Of a stretch of 64,000 nucleotides of DNA, positions 137 through 62,484 are shown in pieces; position 1 is the first letter of the stretch, and each line of letters starts with the position of its first letter. This stretch comes from Minisyncoccota bacterium (lineage in GTDB: Bacteria > Patescibacteriota > Minisyncoccia > Phycocordibacterales > JABAAK01). The stretch is from assembly GCA_963668425.1 (NCBI GenBank), contig OY764332.1, positions 595,896 to 659,895 on the forward strand, read 5' to 3'. The notes beneath the pieces were generated by a model. That model did no database searches. It was not told the origin of the DNA and was given only the letters and a program-made list of their open reading frames with translations. The position numbers and the translations under genes are program-made.

Positions 137-2323
137 ATGATAGACTCAAACACTATTCCTTGTGCAGATTTTAAAGCAAACGCCGCCTTCTGGGAACAAG
201 TAAAAGCCGACCTCATAGCGGAAGGGATAGACGCTAACAACATCATCCTCCCCTACTCAGAGACCTGTGTATCAACCATCTCCACCGCAAATGGGTTTAT
301 CCGGCAAGCGTTTGTTAACAGAACACAAAAGTTGCGAGAAGAAGCAGCAGCAGTACACCCGGACTATCTTGATGCGACTCTCTTCCGATTTATTCCAATA
401 AGTGATATTCCACAGGTCTACGTACTAGGAGTAGGAGCAACCTCAGCAGAAAGACCTCCCATAGAGGTGCTAGGAGAGGGAAAGAGTGTCACGCATCCCT
501 TCTCTGTCACCATCACTGACAAAGCAGGAAACACTGTTAGCATACAAGCAGCAAAGCCACTCACCACAGATGCAGCTCCTCCCGTTGCAACGCTCTACAG
601 AGATGAGGAGGATTACTGGGTAGAGGCACGAGACCCTTCCTACACAAGGACCTTTGGAGAAGCAGGAGTAACATCTCCAACAAAGGTATTTATAGTAAAA
701 GGAGCAGAAGCAACCTACACCCAGCGATCAAAGAACTGTGGTGAACTCGCACAACAAAAAGATGACTTTATAGCACTAGGCGTACCTGCAGAAAATATCT
801 TTGCACCATTTACTTTCCCTTGTACTGATTCAGAAGCAGTTGCCACACGCGAAGAGATACTACAAAGTGGTGTTGCCTATGTGGCTCGTCAAACCGTACT
901 CATCCAAGAAAAGGTAGACGAAGATCCAAACGATGCAATCACACAAACCTCACACGTCACTTTTGCAATGCTTCCCACTCTCTACCAGTTAGGAGTAGGA
1001 GCATCCTCAAAGATGCAAGAGATCTCAGGAACACAACCTCTGGAGAACACCTGCTCTTCCGAAGGAGTGGCGCAAGTCAAAGGTCCTTTCCTCGGTATCT
1101 CTGATGATCGTATCGTTACCAAAGGAGAGATAGGAGACAGTGACTACAAAATCTCAATACTCAAACAAGATCACTTCACCACCGACTCCTTCGGACTCAA
1201 CGTATTCAACGAAGCGCTTGCCTCTGACCGCTACAGTGTAGAAGCGTTCTGTGTTGTCGTAACTGATGCCTTCGGTAGCCAAACCTTCCTTCTAAGCACT
1301 GAAGCAACAATAAAACAAAGAAAAAAACCAGGTAAAGAAGGAGGTATAGGAGGACGCATAGGAGGGAATGTTACCGGCAGTTTGATTCCCTCACTTTCTG
1401 ATCTGTTTGATACCGGTGAACAAGCGGAACAGAAAGCACCAACGACACCTGTCTTTGATGTAGGGCAACAGAGACAACAAGAGCAAACGGCTGCGTTTGT
1501 TGAAGAGGCAACCTCCTTTACTAGAGACCTCACCATCGGCTCAATCGGAGCAGATGTCAGAGCGCTCCAGAAGATGCTCAATGACCTCGGCTTCATCGTA
1601 TCTACAACTGGAGCAGGATCTCCAGGAAAAGAGAGTGTCTACTTTGGCGAGAAGACCAGACAAGCCCTTATCCGTTATCAAATTTCCAAAGGTATTACTC
1701 CAGCATCAGGTTACTTTGGACCACGTACCAGAGCGCAGATACAAGGACAAGCACAAGGACAACTTCAGCCAACAGCACCAGTAGAAGAAGTTAGATCATT
1801 TGTTGATACAGCGACAGAAGAAGAGCACCAACCAGCACCAACAGTGTCTGTTGCCGTTGAAAAAGCAACCTCCTTTACCAGAGACCTCACCATCGGCTCA
1901 ATCGGAGCAGATGTCAGAGCGCTCCAGAAGATGCTCAATGACCTCGGCTTCATCGTATCTACAACTGGAGCAGGATCTCCAGGAGAAGAGAGTGTCTACT
2001 TTGGCGAGAAGACCAGACAAGCCCTTATCCGTTATCAAGAGGCAAACAGTATCACCCCGGCATCAGGTTACTTTGGACCACGTACCAGAGCGCAGATACA
2101 AGGACAGCCAACAGCACCAGTAGAAGAGGTCAGATCATTTATTGAAACGGCAGAACAAGAGGAAGAGGAGCGACGAGAACAACAGTCATCTCCTGAACAA
2201 CAGCAAAAAGAAGAGCGACAAGAACAGCAGGTGTCTCCTGAGCCATTGCAACAGCAAGAAGTACAGACAGAGGATATCACGGACTATGACCCAATTACTA
2301 ACCTACTATTCCCCGTACGGTAA
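137..2323 (+). CDS. Large protein with two near-identical peptidoglycan-binding (PG_binding_1-like) modules and E/Q-rich low-complexity C-terminus
   Basis: 728-aa ORF; twice-repeated module 'LTIGSIGADVRALQKMLNDLGFIVSTTGAGSPG.ESVYFGEKTRQALIRYQ' matches the LxxGxxGxxVxxLQxxL...FGxxTxxAxxxFQ pattern of PG-binding domains; DNA of the two modules (about 1497-1740 and 1857-2100) nearly identical. Confidence 0.5.
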   Translation: MIDSNTIPCADFKANAAFWEQVKADLIAEGIDANNIILPYSETCVSTISTANGFIRQAFVNRTQKLREEAAAVHPDYLDATLFRFIPISDIPQVYVLGVGATSAERPPIEVLGEGKSVTHPFSVTITDKAGNTVSIQAAKPLTTDAAPPVATLYRDEEDYWVEARDPSYTRTFGEAGVTSPTKVFIVKGAEATYTQRSKNCGELAQQKDDFIALGVPAENIFAPFTFPCTDSEAVATREEILQSGVAYVARQTVLIQEKVDEDPNDAITQTSHVTFAMLPTLYQLGVGASSKMQEISGTQPLENTCSSEGVAQVKGPFLGISDDRIVTKGEIGDSDYKISILKQDHFTTDSFGLNVFNEALASDRYSVEAFCVVVTDAFGSQTFLLSTEATIKQRKKPGKEGGIGGRIGGNVTGSLIPSLSDLFDTGEQAEQKAPTTPVFDVGQQRQQEQTAAFVEEATSFTRDLTIGSIGADVRALQKMLNDLGFIVSTTGAGSPGKESVYFGEKTRQALIRYQISKGITPASGYFGPRTRAQIQGQAQGQLQPTAPVEEVRSFVDTATEEEHQPAPTVSVAVEKATSFTRDLTIGSIGADVRALQKMLNDLGFIVSTTGAGSPGEESVYFGEKTRQALIRYQEANSITPASGYFGPRTRAQIQGQPTAPVEEVRSFIETAEQEEEERREQQSSPEQQQKEERQEQQVSPEPLQQQEVQTEDITDYDPITNLLFPVR

Positions 2324-2574: not shown

Positions 2575-3024
2575 ATGAATATGAAATTACTATCTTGCGG
2601 TGCTGTGTGTTTTTATACCATTGGTGCTGTATTGCTGTCGCTCTTGTCCAGTTTGACACATAGTGTTCTTTCTCAAAGTTCTTTTAATCAAGGGAGTGAT
2701 AATCTGGCTTTTGCTGTTGGGAGTGTTGGTAAGGGGGCGGAAACGTTTGGGACTTTGGTGAGTTTGGGAACTACTATTGCGGTTTCTTTGGCATTCTTTT
2801 TCTTCTTTTGGAACTTGTTTAAGTTTATCAAAGCCGCTGATCCTGAAAGCAAAGAATCGGCGCAGGGTAAGATGGTGTGGTCGCTTGTGGCGATTATTGT
2901 GATAGTTTCTCTGTGGGGTATCATTGCCTTTGTTCGGGGAGTGTTGGGTATAGATGCTGGTCTGGATGATGTAAATGATGTTCCGGTTCCGGGGACTGTG
3001 TTGAACCCGTCAAGAGTGCAATAG
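2575..3024 (+). CDS. Small membrane protein (signal peptide + two TM helices; possibly TrbC/VirB2-like pilin fold)
   Basis: 149 aa, hydrophobic N-terminal leader then two long hydrophobic helices separated by a charged loop (FKFIKAADPESKESAQGK); AT-rich promoter-like upstream. Confidence 0.3.
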   Translation: MNMKLLSCGAVCFYTIGAVLLSLLSSLTHSVLSQSSFNQGSDNLAFAVGSVGKGAETFGTLVSLGTTIAVSLAFFFFFWNLFKFIKAADPESKESAQGKMVWSLVAIIVIVSLWGIIAFVRGVLGIDAGLDDVNDVPVPGTVLNPSRVQ

Positions 3025-3196: not shown

Positions 3197-4066
3197 CTAG
3201 TTTCTTTGCTCTTCAATCTCGTACGTGATTACTGCTGTTTGTTGTATCTTTTGCTCACCTTGTTGTATTGGCACTGCTGTCTCCTGTTGTGCTGGCTGAT
3301 TAAATGCGGTAGATGCAGATTCTAGCCGTGCGTATGGACGTGTTTTATTTTCATAGACGTTGATGTGGATTATTTTTTTGAGGCGAAGATTGGACAGTTG
3401 TGCGATTTTGTATGCTCGAATCTTTGCGTCGTGAATTGCTTTTATCGTTGCGATATCTTTTACATATCTTTCATGCTCTTCATCTGCAGCAAAGAGCGGT
3501 CCGGTTACTGTTTCAGGGTTGAGGTCGGTGAGCATGGTGAGTATAGTGCCAACGTTTTCAATGGCTCTGATAACTACTGTGGTGGTGTGGGAAACACGAT
3601 AGCCAAGAAGTTCAGGGGTTCTTTCTGTCAGGAAAGGAGGTATCTCTGGTAAGGAATATTCATATTCAGGGTATATAGTGTAGCCGGTTGTCTGTATGTC
3701 TGTATCGGCGATATTTGCTTGTGTAAGTACTGCATAGGCATCTTGAACTCGTGCGGTTACTATATCACGCGCTGCTGAGACGTCCTGTTGTAGATCGGAA
3801 AATGAGAATGTTATTTTTGCTGTGTTGTTTGTGATGAACTGTTCTCCGATGCCGGTAAATGACATCTCTGCTGACTCTTGGATAGTGTGCATGTATTCTC
3901 GTATACCCCATGCGCCTGTTAGAAGGAATATTGCAAGTGCTATACAAACTCCTATTCGGATTGAAATCCGCATTGCGTTGCAGGCAGACATCGTAGCAGT
4001 CCCGCTGGTCTTGCTTTTTGTGGTGTGCTTCCCGACACTTTTAACACTTTTTCTTTTTGTGACCAT
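3197..4066 (-). CDS. SIMPL/DUF541-family periplasmic protein (BP26/OMP28-like)
   Basis: 289 aa, N-terminal TM anchor, then sequence pattern typical of SIMPL domain (…GYTIYPEYEY…GYRVSHTTTVVIRA…IKAIHDAKIRAYKIAQLSNL…). Confidence 0.45.
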   Translation of the reverse strand: MVTKRKSVKSVGKHTTKSKTSGTATMSACNAMRISIRIGVCIALAIFLLTGAWGIREYMHTIQESAEMSFTGIGEQFITNNTAKITFSFSDLQQDVSAARDIVTARVQDAYAVLTQANIADTDIQTTGYTIYPEYEYSLPEIPPFLTERTPELLGYRVSHTTTVVIRAIENVGTILTMLTDLNPETVTGPLFAADEEHERYVKDIATIKAIHDAKIRAYKIAQLSNLRLKKIIHINVYENKTRPYARLESASTAFNQPAQQETAVPIQQGEQKIQQTAVITYEIEEQRN

Positions 4067-4083
4067 ACAATGGTACTATAGCA

Positions 4084-4554
4084 TTATTTTCTGCCGTAGA
4101 GTCCCATATAAGATGCTTCTTTCAACGTGTGCTTCTTCATTGTCTGTCTTATCTGTTCAGAATTCGGCAATGGCTTTTTGAAAGTAAGTTCAGAATCAAG
4201 TGCGTATAGTGTAAAGTAGTACCGATGAGGATTGTCTCCTCGTGGGGGACAGGGTCCGCCGTATCCTGCTTTGCCCCAACTGTTCGCACCACTTTGAAAA
4301 GAATCTATGTTTTTTGTGTGTATCTCTTTTGTCTCCGGGGGAATGTTAAATAGCAGACAATGATCCCATGTATCACCATCGGTTGCATCGGGATCGTTTA
4401 TGATAAGTACCAGTGAAGCAGTTTTTGTTGGAATATTTTTTATGGTTATGGTTGGGATGCTGTCCTTTCCGTCACACGAGTGTCTGCTTGGTATGTCTCC
4501 TCTGTCTTTGAACTCTTGTATTTTTATTTCCATACTTATTTTGTAGTGTAGCAC
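4084..4554 (-). CDS. PEBP/YbhB/YbcL-family (phosphatidylethanolamine-binding protein-like)
   Basis: 156 aa with hallmark motif 'GGPCPPRGDNPHRYYFTLYALD' (GPxPPxGxHRYxFxLYALD). Confidence 0.7.
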   Translation of the reverse strand: MLHYKISMEIKIQEFKDRGDIPSRHSCDGKDSIPTITIKNIPTKTASLVLIINDPDATDGDTWDHCLLFNIPPETKEIHTKNIDSFQSGANSWGKAGYGGPCPPRGDNPHRYYFTLYALDSELTFKKPLPNSEQIRQTMKKHTLKEASYMGLYGRK

Positions 4555-4666
4555 GTTTTATTTTGTGTACATTATATGTATCTTAATGGGCAGGATGTGT
4601 ATTATTTCTTTGTTTAGTGCTAATTCTATGGTACAATTGCTTTTGTTTCATTTTAATGAATACAGC

Positions 4667-6067
4667 ATGAAGACAAATATACCAAAAACAGTACACTTTG
4701 GCAAAGTTGTGGCAACAGTTGGTCCTGCATCTGAGTCAGAAGAGGGCATTGCGGCACTTGTTGAGGCAGGGGTGGATGTGTTTCGCCTTAACTTTTCTCA
4801 TGGTTCGCATGAGGAACAGGGGCAGCGAGTTGTGCATATACGTGACAAAGAGGAGAAATATAACAGACCAATCAGTATCATTGCTGACTTGCAGGGTCCC
4901 AAGTTGCGCATAGGGACATTTGCCGACGATGAAGGCGTTGAAGTCAAATCCGGGGCATCATTTGCGTTTCATTTGAAAGAGCGTGTTGGAGATGAGCAGG
5001 GGGTTTCGCTTATGCATCCTGAAATATTTGAGGCGGCGAAAGTCGGTATGGATATTTTGGTTGATGACGGACGATTGCAATTTCAAGTTACTGCTGTTAC
5101 TGACGAGGTGTTGGAGACATCTGTGATTACTGGTGGCAGGATAAAACAAAAGAAAGGGGTGAATATACCGACGGTGCAGTTACCGATTGGCGCGCTTACC
5201 GCGAAAGATGAGAGAGATATGGAGTTTGCACTTTCGCGAGGGGTTGATTGGGTGGCGCTTTCATTTGTGCAACGGCCAGAGGACGTGCAACAGGCACGAA
5301 AGATGGTAAATGAGGTAGATGACACAATTGGTATTATTGCAAAGATTGAAAAACCATCTGCGGTTGAGCATATTGAAGAGATTATTGCAGTAGTTGACGC
5401 GATTATGGTGGCGCGTGGTGACTTGGGTGTTGAGATACCGCCAGAAGATGTGCCGAGTATACAGAAAAAGATTATCAAGCTGTGCCGGCAGGCAGGGAAG
5501 CCCGTGATTGTTGCAACACATATGTTGGATTCAATGATTGATGCTCCTCGTCCTACTCGTGCAGAGGTGTCAGACGTTGCAAATGCTATCTATGATGGGA
5601 CTGATGCGGTAATGCTTTCCGCAGAGACAGCGGCAGGTAACTATCCGACTGAATCTGTTGAGATGATGCGGAGTATTGTGCGGCGCTCAGTTACTGATTC
5701 TGAGTTTTTTACTGCAGAAAAAGAAATAGATTTTGCCGCGCTTCGTTGTGACACTGACTCTGTTATTGTTGCTGCGCAAGACGTCATCACAAATGAAAGT
5801 CCGACTGTGATTATTGTTAACGACTCTATTGACGGACTTTCATTTGATAGCGTTATGTGCTATGCGCGGGAGCGGTGTCGACATCCTTTGGTTGTGCTAA
5901 CAGAGGATCAGCGACTTGCGCGTCGTCTTACCTTGGCGTGGGGTGTTTCTCCAGTGTATATTCCTGGTGCTGTTATGCAGGGAGATGATGGCATAGAACC
6001 TGCTATTAGGAAACGTCTTGGTATACCTGATGCTGTGAAGGTTGCCATGCTATGGGCAAAGATATAG
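4667..6067 (+). CDS. pyk: Pyruvate kinase
   Basis: Start moved to internal ATG (MKTNIPKTVHFGKVVATVGP…); motifs VFRLNFSHG, IIAKIEKP, MVARGDLGVEIP, ATHMLDSM; about 466 aa. Confidence 0.9.
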   Translation: MKTNIPKTVHFGKVVATVGPASESEEGIAALVEAGVDVFRLNFSHGSHEEQGQRVVHIRDKEEKYNRPISIIADLQGPKLRIGTFADDEGVEVKSGASFAFHLKERVGDEQGVSLMHPEIFEAAKVGMDILVDDGRLQFQVTAVTDEVLETSVITGGRIKQKKGVNIPTVQLPIGALTAKDERDMEFALSRGVDWVALSFVQRPEDVQQARKMVNEVDDTIGIIAKIEKPSAVEHIEEIIAVVDAIMVARGDLGVEIPPEDVPSIQKKIIKLCRQAGKPVIVATHMLDSMIDAPRPTRAEVSDVANAIYDGTDAVMLSAETAAGNYPTESVEMMRSIVRRSVTDSEFFTAEKEIDFAALRCDTDSVIVAAQDVITNESPTVIIVNDSIDGLSFDSVMCYARERCRHPLVVLTEDQRLARRLTLAWGVSPVYIPGAVMQGDDGIEPAIRKRLGIPDAVKVAMLWAKI

Positions 6068-14475: not shown

Positions 14476-14825
14476 GAGTGCTCAGGAGAGGAATCTCACT
14501 TGACGGTGCCAGAACCGTTGAAAAAATGTCTGCGGGGCGCAGTATACATTTTTCCAACGGTTCTCGGCGCTCCGCTATCGCTCCGCTGACTCCATCCGTC
14601 AAGTTTTTGCTTCGCAAAAACCAATCGGCTATCGCCGACAGTTCTTGTTGTTTGTAAAGAGTATGCTTGTTGTGTTTTGTGGTGGTACTTGGTGTTTGGT
14701 GCTCAGGAGAGGACTTGAACCTCCATGGGATTGCTCCCACACGCCCCTCAAGCGTGCGCGTCTACCCGTGCCGACAATCTCTGATTGTCGCTGATTATTA
14801 GTCGCCACCTTGGTGGCGGAGTCAT
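14476..14825. repeat. 350-bp tandem unit 2
   Basis: Same as unit 1; pseudo-tRNA fragment at about 14699-14762; followed immediately by intact tRNA-Leu. Confidence 0.85.
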
Positions 14826-14828
14826 GAG

Positions 14829-14912
14829 TGCTCAGGAGAGGACTTGAACCTCCATGGGATTGCTCCCACACGCCCCTCAAGCGTGCGCGTCTACCAGTTC
14901 CGCCACCTGAGC
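14829..14912 (-). tRNA. tRNA-Leu (anticodon GAG), type II with long variable arm
   Basis: Reverse complement folds: acceptor GCTCAGG/CCTGAGC, anticodon stem CACGC/GCGTG with loop TTGAGGG, variable arm about 15 nt, T-arm GGTTCAAGTCC; CCA not encoded. Confidence 0.8.
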
Positions 14913-53927: not shown

Positions 53928-54002
53928 GGCCCTATCGTCTAGCGGCTAGGACACAGCCCTCTCACGGCTGAGACCGGGGTTCAATTCCCCGTAGGGTCAC
54001 CA
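53928..54002 (+). tRNA. tRNA-Glu (anticodon CUC), CCA encoded
   Basis: Acceptor GGCCCTA/TAGGGTC, anticodon stem CAGCC/GGCTG loop CTCTCAC, T-arm GGGGTTCAATTCCCC, 3' ACCA. Confidence 0.8.
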
Positions 54003-54115
54003 ATCAGCCAATATACCTCACTCTGTGTTTTTGTATTCGCCTCCGGTCTCAGCCGATCACGGCTGCCAGTAGTCAGGTTTTTGTCAGAGCCAAAAACACG
54101 GGGGTTTGATTCCAC

Positions 54116-54192
54116 GGTACAGCGTTAGAACTGAAGAAACATTTTGAAAATACCTCGTCCGTTCCACCCTCCTCTTAACTTAACCCCAACCC
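54116..54192. repeat. Left terminal inverted repeat of island
   Basis: Reverse complement aligns with 61201-61278 (…GGTTAAGTTAAGAGGAGGGTGGAACGGACGAGGTATTTTCAAAATGTTTCTTCAGTTCTAACGCTGTACC). Confidence 0.8.
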
Positions 54193-54296
54193 TTATGCTC
54201 GGTGCGACTGTTTCGTTTCGTTTTCCCATCTTCGTTCTTTTGCTCTGCTCTGTAAAAGTCCGAGGGAGGGAATGCTTATGTTAAATCACCTTTTCC

Positions 54297-55082
54297 TTAA
54301 ATTCTCTTCCGTGTTCCTCCTATTCTCCTCCTTGCAATATTTACATACTCACTGTCCCTCTCTATTCCCACCCATTGACATCCACATTGTTTAGCAACAC
54401 ACGCCGTCGTCCCGCTTCCCAAAAACGGATCTAAAACAATATCTTCCTTGTTTGCACTCGCAAGAATAATCCGCCGCAGCATTTCCTCAGGTTTTTGTGT
54501 TGGATGTAGCGCCTTTCCATCGTCGCCCCGTAACCGTTCATCCCCTTGCACAAGCGGCAATTCCCACACATCACGCATTTGCTTTACTTTTCCATTTTTC
54601 TGTCTTTCAGGGTTAATTTCTTTCACTTTTTCGTAATTAAAAGTCCACCCCTTCCCTTTGACTGCCCATATAATAAATTCTGTGGAATGTGTAAAAACTC
54701 GTCTCGTCATGTTCGGCATAGCATTTGTCTTATGCCAGGTAATTACATTGTTTATCTTGAATCCAATCTGTTTTATTGCAGTCATGACCTCGCTAATATT
54801 GTGATAACTGCAGGAGATATAAAATGAACCAGTGTCTTTTAATACTCGATTACAAGCACCGATCCATTGACGGGTAAATTGCACATATTCTGGTACGGTC
54901 ATTTTATCCCAGTGTGCGTCAACCATATACCAATCCCCGCCTGTTTTGTTTCCCTCCCACTTCAAACCATTGCCAGAAAGGTTGTACGGCGGATCCGCAA
55001 AAATTAAATCAATTGTTTGTTCATTAATTTTTTTATTCAAAATCTCTACACAATCACCATTGTAAATAATATTTGTTTTCAT
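54297..55082 (-). CDS. DNA methyltransferase, beta-class (DPPY then FxGxG), M2 of M-R-M operon
   Basis: 261 aa; 'IFADPPYNLSG' N-terminal, 'LDPFLGSGTTACVA' C-terminal; 4-nt overlap with upstream REase. Confidence 0.85.
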   Translation of the reverse strand: MKTNIIYNGDCVEILNKKINEQTIDLIFADPPYNLSGNGLKWEGNKTGGDWYMVDAHWDKMTVPEYVQFTRQWIGACNRVLKDTGSFYISCSYHNISEVMTAIKQIGFKINNVITWHKTNAMPNMTRRVFTHSTEFIIWAVKGKGWTFNYEKVKEINPERQKNGKVKQMRDVWELPLVQGDERLRGDDGKALHPTQKPEEMLRRIILASANKEDIVLDPFLGSGTTACVAKQCGCQWVGIERDSEYVNIARRRIGGTRKRI

Positions 55083-56908
55083 GTTGTTTTTTCAGAAGTG
55101 AGTTTCTTGCCCCACGAAGCGATAACAGTCGGGACAGATTCCAACCATTCATTTGAACTTTTCGACTTCTTTGATAGTGCGACAACTTCATCATAAAGAG
55201 ACATAATGTCCGCATGATGCAGAAAAGCATCTTTTACTTTTATTTCAAGAAGGATGTTTAGTACAGAAATAAATTGGGTAATTGAAAGCGGGATAATTTT
55301 TTGCTTTTTTCCTTCATACTCATATTTAACCGCATTCCAAAATGTATTTACAGTATCTCTATGTAATTGCGGAGCAATAAACAGGCAGTAAGATGGCTTA
55401 TCACTATACATGTTTTCAAAATTTCGTAAGTGTCGCATGATTGGCTGTCCCTCGTTGTACCATTGGTCCCGCCCGGTCAACATGGTAACTTCACATATTG
55501 CATTAAATGTTTCATAAAAACATTCGATGTCTGGCATATTGCCTGGCGCGGTGAAAGTCGGCTCATTATCATCACCAACCGGATAATTCGGCTGTATGTT
55601 TAGTGCATCGTTAAGCGCGGTCAGTCCAAGAGCAGACAATTTTTCAAGCAGTAATGGGCGGTCTTCTTGTTCAAAAATATTTTTCAACAATTCAACATAC
55701 GATGCAACATGTTCTGCGCTCTGCGACTCTCTTTGCACCATTTCATCTTGTAATGTTTTCCTATATGCACGCAATTCTGTAACATATTCTTTCAAAACAC
55801 TATCATCCATCTTTTTATAATCCTCAATTATACGCATTTGTTGCTGCAAATCCTTTTCATGTGTCTGTATATCAGAAATAAGATTGGTAATAATTTCTGT
55901 ATGTTTTGCCCTTGTTTCCCATGGTAGTTGAGGTTGAGATATGTCGGAAATATACTCAAGGTACACTTCCTTTGATTCAAATGATTGTGATTGTGCGGTA
56001 TCGCGCTCAAGCAATGATGTAATTTCAACCATTCTTCTCGGCTCAAGATCAACATAGAAACCGCCACCACGAATATACAAATATTTAGTCAGACGAAAAT
56101 ACCGTATCGCATTATCACCATAATCCTTTAGATTGTTCAAAAGAGATTGGACATCTTTATCGTTATCAGTTCCTAAAAATTCAGCAGCAAACTCTTTTCT
56201 GTATTTCTCAAAAAATTTATTCTGTTGCTGCCGTTCTTTTCCTTGAAGATCCGCCCGCAATGTGATAATCTCATTGGTATATTTTTGTACATCACTATAA
56301 TGTACCAAGGTTGGAACAAAAAGAGCAAACTCTTTTTTGCTAATTCCTTTTGCTTTATTCCCATTATACCCCTCCTTTTCATTTATCGCATTAATCAGAT
56401 GTAACATTCCGACAAATGGTTTAATATCATACTCTGCATCCGAAGAGTAGTCATCACTATCAGGATTTGGTATTTGCCATTTCAAAAAACTTCTCAAAAA
56501 CACTTCGCCTAAGTCAAAGTCATCTTGTAAAAACAGCTTCCCTAAATCGGTGACGCATACCTTGCCATCCCGAATGGCGACAAAGCCGAGTTTTCTCAAG
56601 GGATTAATTGACTGCCTGCCGCGCATTGCTGGATCTTCATATTGTTTTCCCAGAAAAATCTTTTCTGCCTCTTTAAATGGGACATCTTTTGAAAAATTAT
56701 CCAATAACTTTACTTGGTTTTTTGAAAGGGTGTTATAAAACTGTGTATTGCCGTAACCGTACAATCTGCTTTGAATTAATAAAATTTGAAACTTTTTTTG
56801 ATTTTCAAAATCCCAGTCCATTCCTTCAAGCTGACTTAACACACCTAGGAAACCCCGTAATCTTTCCGGGCTCCGTAGTGTTGTAGTGATTGACCATGGC
56901 TTTTTCAT
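55079..56908 (-). CDS. Putative type IIS-like restriction endonuclease (uncharacterised about 610-aa protein between two methyltransferases)
   Basis: Start set to ATG 1 nt after upstream methyltransferase stop; tightly coupled on both sides with methyltransferases of different classes, the usual arrangement for asymmetric-site type IIS systems; no family recognisable by eye. Confidence 0.4.
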   Translation of the reverse strand: MKKPWSITTTLRSPERLRGFLGVLSQLEGMDWDFENQKKFQILLIQSRLYGYGNTQFYNTLSKNQVKLLDNFSKDVPFKEAEKIFLGKQYEDPAMRGRQSINPLRKLGFVAIRDGKVCVTDLGKLFLQDDFDLGEVFLRSFLKWQIPNPDSDDYSSDAEYDIKPFVGMLHLINAINEKEGYNGNKAKGISKKEFALFVPTLVHYSDVQKYTNEIITLRADLQGKERQQQNKFFEKYRKEFAAEFLGTDNDKDVQSLLNNLKDYGDNAIRYFRLTKYLYIRGGGFYVDLEPRRMVEITSLLERDTAQSQSFESKEVYLEYISDISQPQLPWETRAKHTEIITNLISDIQTHEKDLQQQMRIIEDYKKMDDSVLKEYVTELRAYRKTLQDEMVQRESQSAEHVASYVELLKNIFEQEDRPLLLEKLSALGLTALNDALNIQPNYPVGDDNEPTFTAPGNMPDIECFYETFNAICEVTMLTGRDQWYNEGQPIMRHLRNFENMYSDKPSYCLFIAPQLHRDTVNTFWNAVKYEYEGKKQKIIPLSITQFISVLNILLEIKVKDAFLHHADIMSLYDEVVALSKKSKSSNEWLESVPTVIASWGKKLTSEKTT

Positions 56909-56909
56909 G

Positions 56910-58127
56910 CTATTTCTTGACTTCGCAATAAAAAATTCTTTCCGCATTATTTTCTCCATCGCTTTTCCCAGTTGTAAATGCCTTGTACCTTTTCTCAAAA
57001 ATCTCAACTGCTCCACGCTTTTTTAAAACTTGTACGATATCCTCATCGTTCATTCGTGCATTTGATCGACCATCTTTTAAATCACCGGTATTGTTATACG
57101 AAAGTAGAATATACTTACAGTTCGCATGCTCAATCAAATCAGCAAAGGCAGATGTTGCATCCTTGAGACAGTATTTACTTTTTATGTGCGAACGATCCAT
57201 TTTTTTAGCAACGCCAAACACATCAGGCTTTTCCCATGTGACCAAATTTTCCAAAAGGTGATATGCATCGGAATACTGCCGAGAGTTATATGGCGGATCA
57301 ATATAAAGTACATCACAAGAGATCTTTCTTATAAGGTCATTTGCATCTTCTCTATATACCTCATTACCTGCATTCTTTCTGTATGACACCTCTGGATTCA
57401 AAAGTTGCACAGGATTTAACATGTCCATCTTCCTCCTAAACGCATCATAGTGACCGACAGTATTTGCCGCACGATCAACTGAGTATAGAAGTGAGCATAG
57501 TAAGATATTTTTTTCATCATCATTTTTCACAACATTCTCTATTTCTTCCCGAATGGCACCAATCTTTTGAGCATTCCTTTTTGAGAAATAGGTTCCACCA
57601 AAATGTTTTGAAAAATAATTTTCTGTTTCATCTGATAATCTATTAAGGTATTTTATTTTTTCTGAAACATTTTCATACATTCCACCATCATCAATATCCA
57701 AAAATGTTCGTAAACACACATAGTTAGCGGAAAGAAAATCATTGGAGATAATTTTTATTTCTCTGGTGTTAAAACTCTCTCCGACAACGCCAGTGCCAGC
57801 AAATATGTCGCAGAAAGAATTCACTTCTTTGCACTTACTGAAGACAATGCTTTTAATAAAATCAATTAGTCTGTACTTATTGCCTAAATACCTCCTGCTT
57901 TGTATCTGAAAATATCCGTCATTTGGCTTTTTTTGTTCAAAATACTTTTTTGTTTTTAGTGATTTAATAAGAGATGCAGTATCAATCCCAGGAACATCAA
58001 AAAGTGCTTGCTGTTCCCTATCTTTGGTGTGCCAAAAACCTTCATCACAGTATCCATCTGTGCATATAAAATTATCCTCATGATTTATACACCGCTCAAC
58101 AATTCTATCTTTTTCATTATTCTTCAT
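56910..58127 (-). CDS. DNA N6-adenine methyltransferase, alpha-class (FxGxG then DPPY), with Cys-rich N-terminal extension, M1 of M-R-M operon
   Basis: 405 aa; 'CDIFAGTGVVGESF' followed by 'VLYIDPPYNSRQY'; N-terminal 'CINHEDNFICTDGYCDEGFWH'. Confidence 0.8.
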   Translation of the reverse strand: MKNNEKDRIVERCINHEDNFICTDGYCDEGFWHTKDREQQALFDVPGIDTASLIKSLKTKKYFEQKKPNDGYFQIQSRRYLGNKYRLIDFIKSIVFSKCKEVNSFCDIFAGTGVVGESFNTREIKIISNDFLSANYVCLRTFLDIDDGGMYENVSEKIKYLNRLSDETENYFSKHFGGTYFSKRNAQKIGAIREEIENVVKNDDEKNILLCSLLYSVDRAANTVGHYDAFRRKMDMLNPVQLLNPEVSYRKNAGNEVYREDANDLIRKISCDVLYIDPPYNSRQYSDAYHLLENLVTWEKPDVFGVAKKMDRSHIKSKYCLKDATSAFADLIEHANCKYILLSYNNTGDLKDGRSNARMNDEDIVQVLKKRGAVEIFEKRYKAFTTGKSDGENNAERIFYCEVKK

Positions 58128-58166: not shown

Positions 58167-59330
58167 TCAAAGTAATTCCCTCTGTCTTCTTACCTTATTC
58201 CATTTCTCAACATCTTCAAATTCATCGTTTTCAGCATAATCATATATTATGCCTACGCTATGCCTTGCCCTTGTAATTGCAATATAAAATTTACAACGGG
58301 TAGTATCCTTTAATTGATTTTCGTGATCTTTAATCCATTTTTTAATATCGTCCGTTGGATAAATAAGAACTTTGTCAAATGTCAAACCTTTTGATTTTCC
58401 ATAATTTATTGCTGGATATTCTGACAATTTTAGTTTCAAGATTTGCGGCGAGTGTGTATTGATGTAATCACACTCATCATCACTTCTGACCAAAAAAACG
58501 CCTTCGTGATCTGTTACATGTTTTCTGCATTTTGCACAGATACAAGGGGTAGAAGATTCATATTGAGGAGGAGGAAAAAGTTTGGATGAAAAATCACAGA
58601 TAGATTGATTATTCCTGTGTGTTCTGTTCAATGTTTCTTGATCTATTACACAACCAAAAGCACAACACTCTGTTTCAATAAATTCTTTAATTTTTCCATT
58701 TTTATATTTTATATTTTTTCTCGCATGACTTGTTAAGTAGGCGACTTGTCTTGGATCACCAACCAATAAAATCCTTGATTGTGTGCCAAGGAGTATTTTT
58801 ATTACCTCTAAATCCCATCCGGCAAGATCCTGCACTTCATCAATAAAAATATGCTGATATATTCTTGAGATTCTATCAATTACTTTTCCGCCTGTTTTGT
58901 CGTTACATTTAAGAATAAACTTTGAAATCTTATCTGAGTATATTTTCCAACCCTCTGTAAAATAGTATTGAGGAAAATCATTCTCTCCCCAATATATCGG
59001 TTTTTCTTTTTTCTTTCTGTTTCTATTTTTACAAGCAGATATTTCTGATGACAAATAAAACCCTATTCTTTTTCCAAATAAACCGTCATTCATTGACCCC
59101 TGATACGGTCTCACACCATGTTGCAAGAGAAAAGAAAACCACGTTTGAACCGTTATGTTTGGCGGTATGTTTCCATTCTTTTCTGTAATTTTTCTTCTAA
59201 TCTCTTGTTCGTTTTCTTCTGTATAAGTAGTAATCAAAATATTCTCTTTCTTAACTTTCAATGCTTCTGTGATAAGATGTGTTGTCTTGCCCGATCCTGC
59301 AACCGCAATTATTAATTTATTTTGATTCAT
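58167..59330 (-). CDS. gajB: GajB-like UvrD/SF1 helicase (short, 387 aa)
   Basis: Walker A 'AVAGSGKTTHL', Walker B 'IFIDEVQDLAGWD', 'VGDPRQ', motif VI 'IAITRARHS'; 14-nt overlap with upstream gajA-like gene. Confidence 0.6.
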   Translation of the reverse strand: MNQNKLIIAVAGSGKTTHLITEALKVKKENILITTYTEENEQEIRRKITEKNGNIPPNITVQTWFSFLLQHGVRPYQGSMNDGLFGKRIGFYLSSEISACKNRNRKKKEKPIYWGENDFPQYYFTEGWKIYSDKISKFILKCNDKTGGKVIDRISRIYQHIFIDEVQDLAGWDLEVIKILLGTQSRILLVGDPRQVAYLTSHARKNIKYKNGKIKEFIETECCAFGCVIDQETLNRTHRNNQSICDFSSKLFPPPQYESSTPCICAKCRKHVTDHEGVFLVRSDDECDYINTHSPQILKLKLSEYPAINYGKSKGLTFDKVLIYPTDDIKKWIKDHENQLKDTTRCKFYIAITRARHSVGIIYDYAENDEFEDVEKWNKVRRQRELL

Positions 59331-60960
59331 GTTCCCATTTAATTGCCTCTAAAATATATTCAGGAAAATTTATGTCTTGATCTGATTCAAATAATTCCAA
59401 CGCACATTTGGTTTTGTTATTTTTCATATGTTCTTCAAGATCTTTGTTGTTCTGATTATCAAGCTTAAAAATACCTGCTAATACATCCAATTGCTTATGA
59501 TTGGCATTTATAATCTGAGGCTCCAATGTCGGCAACTTGTCATTCTTGCTTGCACAGATTTTTATATTTTTTGATTTTTCATAATCTTTGTACTTCTTTT
59601 TAACCTTATTCTCATAATCACCGTCGTTATCGGTCACAACCACCACTGTTTTATTAATCTTATCTGCAATTTCAAGAAATCTTAAAAAAGATGTTCCCAC
59701 AGAAATAACATCAACCTGATCATCAATTGGTGATTTATTTTTTTCCTTCATGTACGCCTTTTGTACTGTTAATTCATCAGACGGACCCTCCACTAAAATA
59801 GCTTTCCTGCAAAGAATCATTCTCAATGTGTCATATCCGGGAAGTTTTTCAAAAAACTTTTGAGTTTCAGGAGTCAAATCATTCATTCTCACTTGATTTA
59901 TGCTATCATCGGGTTCTTTGTTGAGAATAATTAGATTCGCTAAATTAAATTTATTCGCTACAAAATTGCTATGTGTTGAGACTATAGCCTGTTTCTTATT
60001 AGTGTCATCTGTCTTATTATCCTTCAGATGTTTAATTAATTTATTTAGATTTGCGTGTGATAAGTGGTTCTCTGGCTCTTCAAGTAATAATATATTCGCC
60101 TCTTTCGCTTTTTTGTGATTAAGTGCTAATTGAGTTTTGACTAAGGATTGCTCACCTTTCCCAATAAAATCAAAAGGTATGTTGTTCAGATAGGTTTTTA
60201 AGCTTGTTTCCCATGCAGTTTTTGTTGAAACATCGGCTGATAAGGTGATTTTCTTGTTAGATATATTATTCTGACTTAACTTTTCATTTATTTTGTTGAC
60301 GATGTCTTCTTCGGCAAATGAATCTTTAAGCTTTCTATGTGCTTGAGCTATTTTTACTTTTTCACCATCTTCAAGAAGGTCACGAATTATGTGAGATATA
60401 TAAACATCAGATCCATTTTGATAACGACCACTTGTTGAATCTATAAAGGAAGATTTAAATGGTATACTTCGTGGGGTTATGCTCTCCCTTGCAAATGATT
60501 GCCACTCACAGTCATAGTACTCAATCGGCAAAGATTTTAAATCACCATCATCTAAGAGTGCGTCGTGTTCCGATTTGTATCGTTCTTGAAATAAAATCTC
60601 AAATCGTATACCACACCCCTTCTGTCTGGTGGTATTATTATCTCCCTCAAAATTTGCTTTTATCACATCATTATCAATTTCAAAAAACAATTCAATTCTG
60701 ACATGCGGAGGATCCACATTTTCATTTTGATCGGAAATGTATTTTTCCATAACTTCCTTGTTGAAGAGTGCCTCACTATGTCCTGTTCGTATATGTCTAC
60801 CGTGAAACCAGCCAGAAAGTGCAAGATGAACCGCCTCTAAAATTGTAGATTTTCCAGATTCATTATCCCCAACTAATATATTTAAACCCTCATTAAGTTC
60901 CAAAATAAACTCACCTTTGAAACATTTAAAATTTTCAATTACTATCTTTTTCAATCTCAT
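59317..60960 (-). CDS. gajA: GajA-like OLD-family ABC ATPase with C-terminal Toprim nuclease domain
   Basis: 547 aa; Walker A 'GDNESGKSTILEA', Walker B/D-loop 'ILLLEEPENHLS', Toprim 'ILVEGPSDE' and 'VVVVTDNDGDYE'. Confidence 0.7.
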   Translation of the reverse strand: MRLKKIVIENFKCFKGEFILELNEGLNILVGDNESGKSTILEAVHLALSGWFHGRHIRTGHSEALFNKEVMEKYISDQNENVDPPHVRIELFFEIDNDVIKANFEGDNNTTRQKGCGIRFEILFQERYKSEHDALLDDGDLKSLPIEYYDCEWQSFARESITPRSIPFKSSFIDSTSGRYQNGSDVYISHIIRDLLEDGEKVKIAQAHRKLKDSFAEEDIVNKINEKLSQNNISNKKITLSADVSTKTAWETSLKTYLNNIPFDFIGKGEQSLVKTQLALNHKKAKEANILLLEEPENHLSHANLNKLIKHLKDNKTDDTNKKQAIVSTHSNFVANKFNLANLIILNKEPDDSINQVRMNDLTPETQKFFEKLPGYDTLRMILCRKAILVEGPSDELTVQKAYMKEKNKSPIDDQVDVISVGTSFLRFLEIADKINKTVVVVTDNDGDYENKVKKKYKDYEKSKNIKICASKNDKLPTLEPQIINANHKQLDVLAGIFKLDNQNNKDLEEHMKNNKTKCALELFESDQDINFPEYILEAIKWEHESK

Positions 60961-60967
60961 ACCTATT

Positions 60968-61147
60968 ACTTTAATAATGCCAAATGCCTACCTTTCTCAA
61001 TAGCCAGCCAGTTAACGGATAAGCAATAAAAACTGCTATAAGCGCTGGTTTTACTGGTTCATTGAAAATATTCCAAAGCAAGGCAAAAATAACAATGGTG
61101 ATTACTTTATTTACCACGCTTCCTAATGTTGAGTGAAAGTTTTTCAT
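60968..61147 (-). CDS. Unannotated 59-aa two-TM small membrane protein heading the Gabija-like operon
   Basis: Translation by hand of the minus strand: MKNFHSTLGSVVNKVITIVIFALLWNIFNEPVKPALIAVFIAYPLTGWLLRKVGIWHY; stop 8 nt before gajA-like start; below the ORF-track size cut-off. Confidence 0.3.
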
Positions 61148-61200
61148 AAAAACATTTTACCATTATTTGGTTAAGGTGTTTACGGTGCGGTCCGAGCGTA

Positions 61201-61278
61201 GGGGTTGGGTTTAAGTTAAGAGGAAGGTGGAACGGATGAGGTGTTTTCAAAATGTTTCTTCGGCTCTAACGCTGTACC
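61201..61278. repeat. Right terminal inverted repeat of island
   Basis: See TIR-L; abuts DR2 at 61280. Confidence 0.8.
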
Positions 61279-61380
61279 ATAAGGTCACCAATCAGCCAGC
61301 AGATACCGTATTTCATGCCTCTGTATTTATCTCTGATTTTAGAAATTTAGGCATTTCTCTGGTGGTACACTATAAACATC

Positions 61381-61454
61381 GGGCGATTAGCTCAGTTGGC
61401 TAGAGCGCTCCCTTGACGTGGGAGAGGTCACAGGTTCAAGTCCTGTATCGCCCA
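61381..61454 (+). tRNA. tRNA-Val (anticodon GAC)
   Basis: Acceptor GGGCGAT/ATCGCCC, D-arm GCTCAGTTGGCTAGAGC, anticodon stem CTCCC/GGGAG loop TTGACGT, T-arm GGTTCAAGTCC. Confidence 0.8.
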
Positions 61455-61710
61455 CCTAAAAACAGCATATTTGCTGGTGTTTGTGAGGTATCTATTTTGG
61501 CATATGTATCCTTGAGATGACTTGTCTATTGCCAAAATATCCTTATTTATAGGGCTTTTCTAAAGATATTGCCATAGGTAGCATATTATAATATATAGTT
61601 GACATTTTGACAAAAATATGTAATAATAAGTGTAGATTATACAAGGAATTACCTTGTAAACTACTCTTTTAATTACTTACTATATTACATTAATAAAAAT
61701 AACTAATATT

Positions 61711-62484
61711 ATGAATTACACAAAAAAAATAATTACTAGCGTGTTAATAGTTGTAATTGCTGTATTACTAGCAGTAGCAACCATTCACACATCAAGTGCT
61801 TACGCACAGGATGGAGAATGTACTTTCTATGTCTCTTCTATAGAGCGTGACGGTTCAAAAATTTCTCTACATCCTTCAACTTGTACTGCTGCGGATGAGC
61901 AACTTTTGCCAAATTCTGTTTCTCTGCGTTACAAAATCAATTTGTACGCTGCTGTTGATACAGTAAACTATGACTCACTAGAAATAATGGGTTCAGAAGA
62001 GAGAGTAGTACAAATGGAAAAAGTAGTAACAGATTCCGATCTTGGAATTTATCATTATGAAGCAACAACCCCTACGATTGATAACAGTTACTGGGCAACA
62101 AGTTTTGTTGAGGGAAGCGTATATGTTCTTGCTACTACTCTTGTTAATAACGTTCAAGGGTCTACAGCAATGCTTTTGGATTGTGATACGAGCGAATGTG
62201 AGCTTTATGTAAAGTATGTTGAGTCCTATACTCACACCTCTACTGGCACCACTGTTGTTGACACCCCTACTGTTGTTGTTGATACTCCTGTTGTTGATAC
62301 TCCTGTTGTTGATACTCCTGTCGCTGACACCGCTGATACTGAGGTCAAGAGAAACAAGAGAGCAAGTCAAGGATCTGGTGCGATACGCCCTGGTTACCTT
62401 ACCTGCCGTGTTGCAGGCCGAAAGAACTGTGGATCAGTAAATACAGATGTATGGCAAACAATCGGACTATACATAGGAATGTAA
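61711..62484 (+). CDS. Secreted tandem-repeat protein, paralog of 20314-21120
   Basis: 257 aa; signal peptide …SSAYA-Q; 15-bp tandem repeats at about 62250-62330 (TPVVD units); shared C-terminal 'GAIRPGYLTC…RKNCGSVNTD'. Confidence 0.5.
   Translation: MNYTKKIITSVLIVVIAVLLAVATIHTSSAYAQDGECTFYVSSIERDGSKISLHPSTCTAADEQLLPNSVSLRYKINLYAAVDTVNYDSLEIMGSEERVVQMEKVVTDSDLGIYHYEATTPTIDNSYWATSFVEGSVYVLATTLVNNVQGSTAMLLDCDTSECELYVKYVESYTHTSTGTTVVDTPTVVVDTPVVDTPVVDTPVADTADTEVKRNKRASQGSGAIRPGYLTCRVAGRKNCGSVNTDVWQTIGLYIGM

Follow-up and report, generated by a model that had tools for sequence, protein, structure and literature searches.

The window analysed here (the whole stretch of 64,000 nt) carries on its minus strand, between positions 58167 and 61147, a small reading frame followed by an OLD-type nuclease gene and a helicase gene. 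The first-pass annotation read the two large genes as a Gabija-like module with an unusually short GajB, and the small ORF as a membrane protein that would make a third gene of a variant architecture. The locus thus raises the question whether a new form of Gabija is present or a known system with an additional gene at its side. The gajA and gajB genes very probably make up an ordinary two-gene Gabija anti-phage system whose subtype, compact and widespread, is catalogued in PADLOC as PDLC00102/PDLC00148, with the small gene as a real neighbor and not a component. Neither the short GajB nor the adjoining small ORF should therefore be taken as a new Gabija architecture, and the earlier reading is corrected on this point.

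The GajA and GajB proteins

The gajA gene (59317-60960, minus strand) encodes a protein of 547 aa, of which residues 1-542 align with positions 1-531/532 of the PADLOC profile PDLC00102 (E 6.3e-198, 656 bits). Pfam recovers the AAA_15, AAA_21 and OLD-like_TOPRIM families, and together with the full-length PADLOC match this bears out the arrangement of an ABC/OLD-type ATPase and a Toprim domain proposed from the letters of the sequence. The motifs quoted for this protein (GDNESGKSTILEA, LLLEEPENHLS, ILVEGPSDE and VTDNDGD) are all found in its translation. Among 20 GajA homologues, Walker A (G31-T39), the segment E294-S301 (EEPENHLS), the Toprim residues E391, D395 and E396, and D444-N445-D446 are invariant. 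The top Foldseek match of the GajA model in the PDB is the GajA of Bacillus cereus (8sm3_A, E 1.8e-15), with a TM-score of 0.37 for a model of moderate confidence (pLDDT 70.5).

The gajB gene (58167-59330, minus strand) encodes a compact SF1A helicase of the UvrD/Rep type with 387 aa. Its ORF shares 14 nt with that of gajA, and the ORF coordinates agree with the overlap and the size of 387 aa given previously. The PADLOC profile PDLC00148 (369 positions) is covered by GajB nearly in its whole length (E 2.5e-133, 443 bits). In Pfam the protein matches UvrD-helicase, whereas UvrD_C appears only below the threshold (23.7 bits vs. a cut-off of 25.6), so the GajB-like SF1/UvrD assignment is upheld with this single restriction. 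The motifs GSGKTT, FIDEVQD, VGDPRQ and ITRARHS are all located in the translation as quoted, the catalytic motifs are invariant across 30 homologues, and the top Foldseek match of the GajB model in the PDB is a Gabija GajB chain (8tk1_F).

As to the length of GajB, 387 aa is shorter than the 494 aa of the B. cereus protein, yet it is typical within its own subtype and the claim of an unusually short protein does not hold there. A length of 364-402 aa is seen in the best 120 GajB homologues. Across 73 surveyed loci whose gajB is intact, the protein has a median length of 378 aa (range 328-401), and all but one (72/73) fall within 355-405 aa; the position of gajB relative to the end of gajA varies from -14 to +21 nt. 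Compact GajB models of 365-382 positions already exist in PADLOC. Relatives number 560 in GTDB species genomes of many phyla, including Saccharimonadales, Nomurabacteria, Paceibacterota and Shapirobacteria. Lack of a 2B subdomain and a length of about 380 aa are the rule for GajB in this large subtype across many phyla.

The helicase motifs IV and V of the window GajB are only about 70 residues apart, which indicates that the 2B subdomain is essentially missing. At the position of 2B, the GajB proteins of the subtype have a short loop in which four cysteines, C245, C263, C265 and C268, are invariant. These constitute a testable structural feature and possibly form a metal site in place of 2B. 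A compact SF1A core lacking 2B is also found in DarH of DarHTG (PMC13069673) and in the Rep variant without 2B that is cited there, and the GajB model can be aligned to Rep (633 aa) over about 319 residues. Those helicases, however, have other partner proteins, and the conserved loop with its four cysteines is a specific feature of the GajB subtype of the window.

In comparison with the PDLC00102/PDLC00148 subtype, both window proteins align end to end, and the gene order and overlap are as in the 73 surveyed loci. There is no substantive difference; the C-terminal tail of the window GajB is about 15 residues longer than in its nearest relatives, since nucleotide homology to them ends at position 58197. 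The GajAB of B. cereus VD045 (PDB 8SM3, 8J4T and 8TK1; PMC10781630) has the same arrangement of a nuclease with OLD-type ATPase and Toprim domains and, after it, an SF1A helicase carrying a DEXQD box. Sequence similarity between the two pairs is nevertheless very low: phmmer recovers neither B. cereus chain, and of the subtype profiles, that of GajA does not match the B. cereus protein at E<0.01 and that of GajB matches only over residues 4-48. The B. cereus GajB also possesses the 2B subdomain, where the window protein has the four-cysteine loop.

By sequence, the closest solved relative of the window GajA is not the B. cereus GajA but the OLD protein of Thermus scotoductus (6P74), whose Walker B and Toprim region is matched with E 5e-9 by the single sequence and 8e-12 by the profile. 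This protein, a class 1 OLD according to PMC10568477, is encoded by a stand-alone gene. Class 2 OLDs, to which Gabija belongs, are defined by an adjoining UvrD/PcrA/Rep-like SF1 helicase gene on the same strand (PMC10568477), and in the window the OLD gene directly adjoins such a gene on one strand. A published variant architecture is the Type II Gabija (GajB and GajC, Liu-DS1; PMC13069673), in which GajA is exchanged for a MazF-like GajC. In contrast, the window retains GajA, and the product of its extra gene, a membrane protein of 58 aa, is not similar to GajC.

By analogy with the B. cereus Gabija (PMC10781630, PMC8136825, bioRxiv 10.1101/2023.05.02.539174), the two window proteins are expected to form a GajA-GajB complex, within which the Toprim site of GajA would cut invading DNA once nucleotide inhibition is relieved, and GajB would act on DNA ends or single-stranded DNA, hydrolysing (d)ATP and (d)GTP.

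The small two-TM gene upstream of gajA

The small ORF exists on the same strand upstream of gajA, as the first-pass annotation had noticed, but its details needed revision: the span of 60968-61147, the length of 59 aa and the distance of 8 nt become 60971-61147 (minus strand), 58 aa plus stop, and 10 nt before the ATG of gajA. The claim of two transmembrane segments agrees with a Kyte-Doolittle scan, in which hydrophobic segments are located at about residues 11-28 and 34-50. The distribution of basic residues suggests a small hairpin protein with both ends in the cytoplasm, and we would guess that it is a self-standing small membrane protein.

A profile search against 1.84 billion representatives added six relatives that are full length (59-67 aa). 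In the respective hmmsearch, nine proteins were found at E<=1e-3, with the window protein at 3.6e-37 and its relatives from 1.9e-12 to 6e-4, six of them full length. In the alignment of the family (58-67 aa), G9, Y43, G47, L50, R51, G54 and W56 are invariant, and the window protein has all of the family motifs, that is, LGS...N, (A/S)YPLTG and LR..G.W(H/Y)Y, together with the two hydrophobic segments. The protein has no match in Pfam, PHROG, PADLOC or NCBIfam. Relatives were found neither in INPHARED phages and PLSDB plasmids (tblastn) nor in JGI metagenome contigs and IMG/VR (alignment-based search).

It could be argued that a frame of this size is a chance product of AT-rich intergenic DNA, as it has no recognisable Shine-Dalgarno sequence ahead of it, no family annotation and no entry in the ORF track supplied to the first-pass annotation. 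This is extremely improbable. Gene callers picked up the ORF both in the source record and in further assemblies, and its full-length relatives share the conserved motifs. Compared with the homologue in locus L001, the differences at the three codon positions are 12/4/28, with pS 0.72, pN 0.11 and all 12 substitutions conservative; the resulting dN/dS of 0.05 refers to this one close homologue. The small ORF is, on this pattern of substitutions and conserved residues, a real gene under selection that encodes a small membrane hairpin, and its rare, unannotated family turns up near defense genes.

The gene is probably co-transcribed with gajAB, and no terminator is predicted between it and gajA. 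A promoter-like site (TAAACA-17-TAAAAT with TG, 61154-61182, minus strand) is a candidate for the small ORF, gajA and gajB, with the end of its -10 hexamer 6 nt before the ATG of the small ORF; it comes from a consensus scan only (9/12 matches), and in total such sites are no more numerous in the region than in a shuffled one. Terminator-like matches inside gajB were judged to be due to chance (11 in the region vs. 7.1 +/- 2.3 in shuffled sequence).

Association of the small gene with Gabija

The proposal of a third gene was examined in homologous Gabija loci. None of 80 loci of the subtype from GTDB species genomes, about eight of them from CPR, contains the small gene: tblastn gave no match in these loci and the family HMM on six-frame translations nothing below E 0.4, and only truncated fragments are present in the closest relatives. 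An unrelated two-TM ORF of any kind (<=150 aa) lies within 200 nt upstream in only 2 of about 78 loci. Both cases (L044 and L046) were rejected as a recurrent membrane partner, being of unrelated sequence and 112-157 nt away from gajA. The first-pass annotation had held that an ORF not conserved in homologous loci would be spurious. The absence from these loci is confirmed, but the ORF is not spurious, as its dN/dS and its family demonstrate.

The fragments in the closest relatives provide information on the history of the locus. The five closest gajAB loci (GajA identity 72-81%) carry codons 32-58 of the small ORF or fewer, with the start codon lost or the frame broken. Nucleotide homology (about 80-82%) to L085, L086 and L089 extends from position 61053/61054 of the window to 58197; with L003 and L004, the homology begins at 61020 and 60995, respectively. 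Judged by nucleotide homology, the piece of the small ORF carried along with gajAB to other genomes is its 3' part at 60971-61053 (minus strand). In L085 and L089, the 27-codon fragments show dN/dS of 0.15-0.30, which is indistinguishable from that of gajA (about 0.2) and therefore cannot show neutrality; their decay is recognized from the loss of start codons and the disruption of frames. As this shared homology shows, the small gene and gajA were already neighbors before the split from the 76% clade (dS about 0.6). A later move of gajAB into other genomes was probably cut inside the small gene, carrying along only its 3' 83 nt, and the remnant in the recipient genomes is now truncated or disrupted in frame. 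The fragment upstream of gajA in other genomes would then show exactly where, on its 5' side, a horizontally transferred gajAB cassette was broken off.

The five family members whose contexts were retrieved are found in different surroundings. The small gene is placed beside HSDR_N-like, NERD and CapP-like M78 genes in L001, beside a PDC-M50 TIR pair in L092 and beside a HEPN-like gene (borderline match) in L090. In L091, which has three paralogues, it occurs with DEAD-helicase fragments, and in L093 with a gene for a PKD-domain protein. In L001, L090 and L092, a variable gene follows 10-66 nt downstream with defense-type genes close by; the next genes of L090 (185 aa) and L092 (190 aa) have no mutual homology. 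The variable downstream gene and the defense neighbors (3/5 contexts, a tiny sample) could point to a modular role.

Two readings of the small gene compete with that of a mere neighbor. According to the one, the two-TM protein is a dedicated subunit of a three-gene Gabija in this lineage and serves GajAB as membrane anchor, effector or regulator. The gene and gajA do lie on one strand 10 nt apart with no predicted terminator, the gene is under purifying selection, and the junction is older than the local clade, since relatives carry the 3' fragment. This reading is nevertheless very unlikely: besides the absence from all 80 subtype loci with their CPR members, all five retrieved family members adjoin non-Gabija genes, gajA and gajB are intact in at least three of the closest relatives (L085, L003 and L086, with gajA dN/dS about 0.2) despite the destroyed small ORF, no PADLOC model matches the protein, and the Gabija literature cited here describes a two-protein system with no membrane third component mentioned. 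According to the other, the family is a portable accessory of many defense cassettes, or a marker of cargo hotspots in mobile islands of small genomes. The defense-type neighbors in three of six contexts (Gabija and the restriction-modification system in the window, L001 and L092, with the borderline HEPN of L090), the variable next gene in three of the five retrieved contexts and the paralogues of L091 agree with this. Yet only six contexts are known, most of them on contigs of 2-5 kb, no defense gene is seen in L093 and L091, and the phage, plasmid, viral and metagenome collections searched hold no relatives; this reading is unlikely, if less so than the former.

The small gene is best described as an independent accessory of such islands and not as a Gabija subunit. 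As the adjacency is old and the gene is intact in this lineage, there may still be a lineage-specific functional link with Gabija. A broader and quite unlikely proposal is that the family represents an undescribed hairpin membrane protein of defense islands in small genomes, directly 5' of interchangeable cassettes, which are Gabija in the window and NERD, a TIR pair or HEPN-like genes in other contexts; the protein would be either a membrane module common to these cassettes (such as a sensor, effector or anchor) or the product of a conserved gene flanking the hotspot. If so, the window would keep the ancestral arrangement of the small gene and gajAB, and gajAB would have been exported later with half of the gene attached.

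The tRNA-Glu island and its restriction-modification system

The small ORF, gajAB and a Type IIS-like restriction-modification system make up a 7.3-kb island of low GC at the 3' end of tRNA-Glu (53928-54002). The GC content of the island is 0.32-0.36, against 0.40-0.48 elsewhere. An att-like direct repeat (53989-54010, plus strand) comprises the last 14 nt of tRNA-Glu and the 8 nt that follow, and 20 of its 22 nt are identical to the second copy at 61277-61298 (plus strand), 82 nt before tRNA-Val (61381-61456). Islands integrated at tRNA genes are recognized by a copy of the tRNA 3' end repeated directly at their far boundary and by an atypical base composition, and both features are present here. 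The six ORFs between the repeats encode two methyltransferases, an endonuclease, GajB, GajA and the small protein; the island contains no integrase or recombinase gene.

The boundaries are also marked by an inverted repeat of 87 bp, with the left copy at 54116-54202 and the right copy at 61192-61278, which is 90.8% identical to the reverse complement of the left (E 4e-30). This element has no Rfam match and no stable fold (z-score 0.19), so it was dropped as an RNA candidate and is taken as a repeat at the DNA level.

The three genes of the restriction-modification system are all on the minus strand. A D12-class N6-adenine DNA methyltransferase is encoded at 56910-58127 (Pfam MethyltransfD12, E 2e-32; PADLOC MTase_II, E 4e-113). 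The endonuclease at 55079-57016 belongs to the AlwI family (Type IIS or nicking type; Pfam RE_AlwI, E 8e-88); residues 38-640 match the PADLOC model REase_II, "Type II nicking endonuclease" (E 9e-143), and its true start is probably Met37. The second methyltransferase of the system, of the N6_N4 (CcrM-like) type, is located at 54297-55082 (Pfam N6_N4_Mtase, E 1e-62; PADLOC MTase_II, E 2e-85).

As a separate observation, two genes of the window are present as near-identical copies on a sister contig of 54,934 bp.

The Gabija pair and its compact GajB

The small ORF (60971-61147, 58 aa), gajA (59317-60960, 547 aa) and gajB (58167-59330, 387 aa) lie consecutively on the minus strand, according to the ORF listing. 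The two gaj genes overlap by 14 nt, and a gap of 10 nt separates the end of the small ORF from the ATG of gajA. The first-pass annotation had correctly placed the small ORF upstream of gajA, but its end at 60968, its length of 59 aa and its spacing of 8 nt did not hold. Every sequence motif quoted there was found in the translations.

The assignment of the two large proteins to Gabija is supported by Pfam, PADLOC and the fold class. In detail, the anticipated families AAA_15, AAA_21 and OLD-like_TOPRIM were all found in the 547-aa protein, together with SMC_N, and UvrD-helicase was found with AAA_19 in the 387-aa protein, in which the UvrD_C match stays under the gathering cut-off. Both proteins match the PADLOC profiles of the compact subtype end-to-end, i.e., GajA with PDLC00102 (E 6.3e-198, residues 1-542, profile positions 1-531 of 532) and GajB with PDLC00148 (E 2.5e-133, residues 3-379, profile positions 2-367 of 369). 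No NCBIfam equivalog was above cut-off for either protein.

The window proteins are distant in sequence from the solved Gabija proteins. With phmmer against PDB chains, GajB had no match and the top match of GajA was the class 1 OLD protein 6p74, which the subtype profile also recognizes (E 8e-12). The subtype profiles did not match Bacillus cereus GajA, and B. cereus GajB was matched only in the Walker A region (E 9e-8), at a level with UvrD. AF2 models were built for GajB from its homologue alignment (pLDDT 84.4) and for GajA likewise (pLDDT 70.5). In Foldseek searches of the PDB, Gabija chains were on top for both models (8tk1_F for GajB, E 1.3e-11; 8sm3_A for GajA, E 1.8e-15), with UvrD and TsOLD close behind. 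The Gabija label is thus justified by the arrangement that defines class 2 (PMC10568477), in which a UvrD-like helicase accompanies an OLD nuclease in tandem, by the curated subtype HMMs and by the fold class; it is not founded on close similarity to a characterized system. The pair is a further member of an already known Gabija subtype.

GajB had been described as unusually short, and this description is not upheld, as 387 aa is a typical size for this subtype. PADLOC models of 365, 369 and 382 positions exist alongside longer ones, and the best 120 homologues from a 5.8-billion-protein collection are all 364-402 aa long. Scanning of the GTDB species genomes with the GajA alignment confirmed 560 relatives, in Pseudomonadota, Bacteroidota, Bacillota, Omnitrophota, Chloroflexota, one archaeon and several CPR lineages, and the best 80 of these 560 loci were retrieved. 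In the 73 loci with an intact gajB, the median length of GajB is 378 aa (range 328-401) and the gene is positioned from -14 to +21 nt relative to the end of gajA.

The compactness appears to stem from the region between motif IV (about residue 238) and motif V (311-319), as judged from the motif spacing of about 70 residues and the secondary structure of the model, not from superposition. The 2B subdomain occupies this position in B. cereus GajB and in UvrD (PMC10781630). Four cysteines of this stretch (C245, C263, C265 and C268) are invariant in 30 GajB homologues, and C222 and C227 are near-invariant in the same set. The short cysteine-bearing stretch in place of 2B (residues 222-268) may be a metal-binding loop. 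Precedents for UvrD-like helicases that lack 2B exist among defence systems, e.g., DarH (PMC13069673).

A real small gene and its truncated copies

The small ORF is a real gene, which encodes an unannotated small membrane protein. Besides the protein itself, a word-indexed search recovered a single relative, which is also 58 aa long (79% identity) and is encoded in L001. The two coding sequences show 12/4/28 differences by codon position (pS 0.72, pN 0.11, dN/dS 0.05), all 12 replacements are conservative, and the homology starts 6 nt 5′ of the ATG and ends at the stop codon. When a profile of these two sequences was run exhaustively with HMMER against 1.84 billion representatives, six more full-length proteins of 59-67 aa and a 110-aa fusion ORF were recovered. 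The family alignment shows two hydrophobic segments and the invariant residues G9, Y43, G47, L50, R51, G54 and W56; no family match was found in Pfam, PHROG, PADLOC or NCBIfam. It had been argued that the ORF would be spurious if unconserved in homologous loci. It is indeed absent from the 80 retrieved GTDB Gabija loci, but its dN/dS and its six full-length relatives show that it is not spurious.

The closest gajAB relatives (L003, L004, L085, L086 and L089; GajA identity 72-81%) are about 80-82% identical to the window in nucleotide sequence from 61053/61054 down to 58197. The shared stretch begins at codon 32 of the small ORF, 5′ of which homology is lost, and ends shortly before the gajB stop. 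The small-ORF fragment is a frame without a start codon in L085, is frame-shifted in L086, and is reduced to 13 codons in L003 and about 8 in L004. In L089 (3007-3339), the 3′ fragment continues in frame from an unrelated N-terminus of 83 residues, forming the 110-aa ORF, and the neighbouring gajA (3350-4944) is split into pieces of 414 aa and 117 aa. Both gajA and gajB are intact in L085, L003 and L086, with a dN/dS of about 0.2 for gajA against the window.

Since the C-terminal half is ancient in the small-protein family, the fragments must descend from a full gene. In the simplest history, gajAB would first have adjoined a complete small gene, as in the window, and a later transfer of gajAB would have cut through that gene. 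The 27-codon fragments have a dN/dS of 0.15-0.30, a statistic that lacks the power to strengthen this case. The small gene and gajA have long been adjacent (dS about 0.6), and the window lineage has kept the small gene intact.

Relation of the small gene to Gabija

The small gene had been proposed as a possible third gene of the system. Its position is compatible with a common transcript: the 10-nt gap, the lack of a predicted terminator and a candidate promoter-like site ending 6 nt 5′ of its ATG indicate that it is probably co-transcribed with gajAB. Gabija is described as a two-protein system of GajA and GajB (PMC10568477), and type II Gabija differs in having a MazF-like GajC in place of GajA (PMC13069673); no membrane component was found in these Gabija papers or when full texts were searched, noisily, for third genes or transmembrane genes. 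The expected conservation upstream of gajA failed to appear. Among the best 80 of the 560 GTDB loci, including the CPR loci L009, L025, L030, L038, L039, L041 and L046, neither tblastn nor the family HMM on six-frame translations recovered a relative (best E 0.46). Only 2 of these loci have a small two-TM ORF of any kind in the 200 nt upstream of gajA, and both ORFs are unrelated to this family. Moreover, all five family members with a retrieved context are located away from Gabija. Finally, gajAB has stayed intact in L085, L003 and L086, where just remnants of the small gene are left. The small membrane gene is therefore adjacent to, and not part of, the Gabija system, and a Gabija-specific role is very improbable.

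A general modular role of the family is only slightly less improbable. In three of the five contexts (L001, L090 and L092), a variable gene directly follows the small gene and defence-type genes are nearby. In L001, the gene comes after a tRNA-Gln, with a split HSDR_N-like gene on one side and, on the other, a 53-aa ORF together with a NERD gene and one for a CapP-like M78 peptidase. In L090, genes for an unknown 185-aa protein and a protein with a borderline HEPN match come after it, and in L092 it adjoins a PDC-M50 pair including a ThsB-like TIR protein. Two of the three paralogues of L091 adjoin DEAD-helicase fragments, and in L093 the gene follows a PKD-domain protein. With six contexts in all, the association with defence is anecdotal.

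Two of these loci have features of their own. The pair in L092 (367-1305) is the PADLOC candidate system PDC-M50 (A, 143 aa, E 2e-44; B, ThsB-like TIR, E 5e-60), about 400 nt upstream of the small gene. On the 4.8-kb contig L091, the paralogues are found at 2062-2247 (-), 2681-2860 (-) and 4512-4691 (+); two of them adjoin DEAD/Helicase_C fragments within an inverted duplication, and a MazG-like gene is close by.

The island around Gabija

A Type IIS-like RM system (54297-58127, minus strand) is located directly downstream of gajB. It consists of a D12-class MTase (405 aa), an AlwI-family nicking-type endonuclease and a CcrM-like N6_N4 MTase (261 aa). The endonuclease ORF is listed from a GTG codon; its true start is probably Met37, right behind the D12 MTase stop. 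The GC content of the 54-61.3 kb block is 0.32-0.36, against 0.40-0.48 elsewhere. The island is flanked by tRNA-Glu (53928-54002) on the left and tRNA-Val (61381-61456) on the right. A 22-nt direct repeat (53989-54010 and 61277-61298, 20/22 identical) comprises the last 14 nt of tRNA-Glu and 8 nt more, and an 87-bp inverted repeat (54116-54202 and 61278-61192, 90.8% identity, E 4e-30), for which neither an Rfam match nor a notable fold was found, flanks the six genes. No integrase or transposase was found between the island repeats. The N6_N4 MTase (54297-55082) has relatives of at least 90% identity on five further contigs (12-492 kb), and GajA, GajB and the small protein each stand alone at this identity, which suggests that the island is a mosaic whose Gabija part was acquired separately.

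Just past tRNA-Val and outside the island, a 257-aa ORF (61711-62484, plus strand) has a hydrophobic N-terminus, a VVDTP-like repeat run near its C-terminus and no Pfam match. Elsewhere in the window, tandem tRNA-Leu(GAG) genes (14701-14785 and 14828-14912) are 42 nt apart, and only one of them passes the Rfam gathering score.
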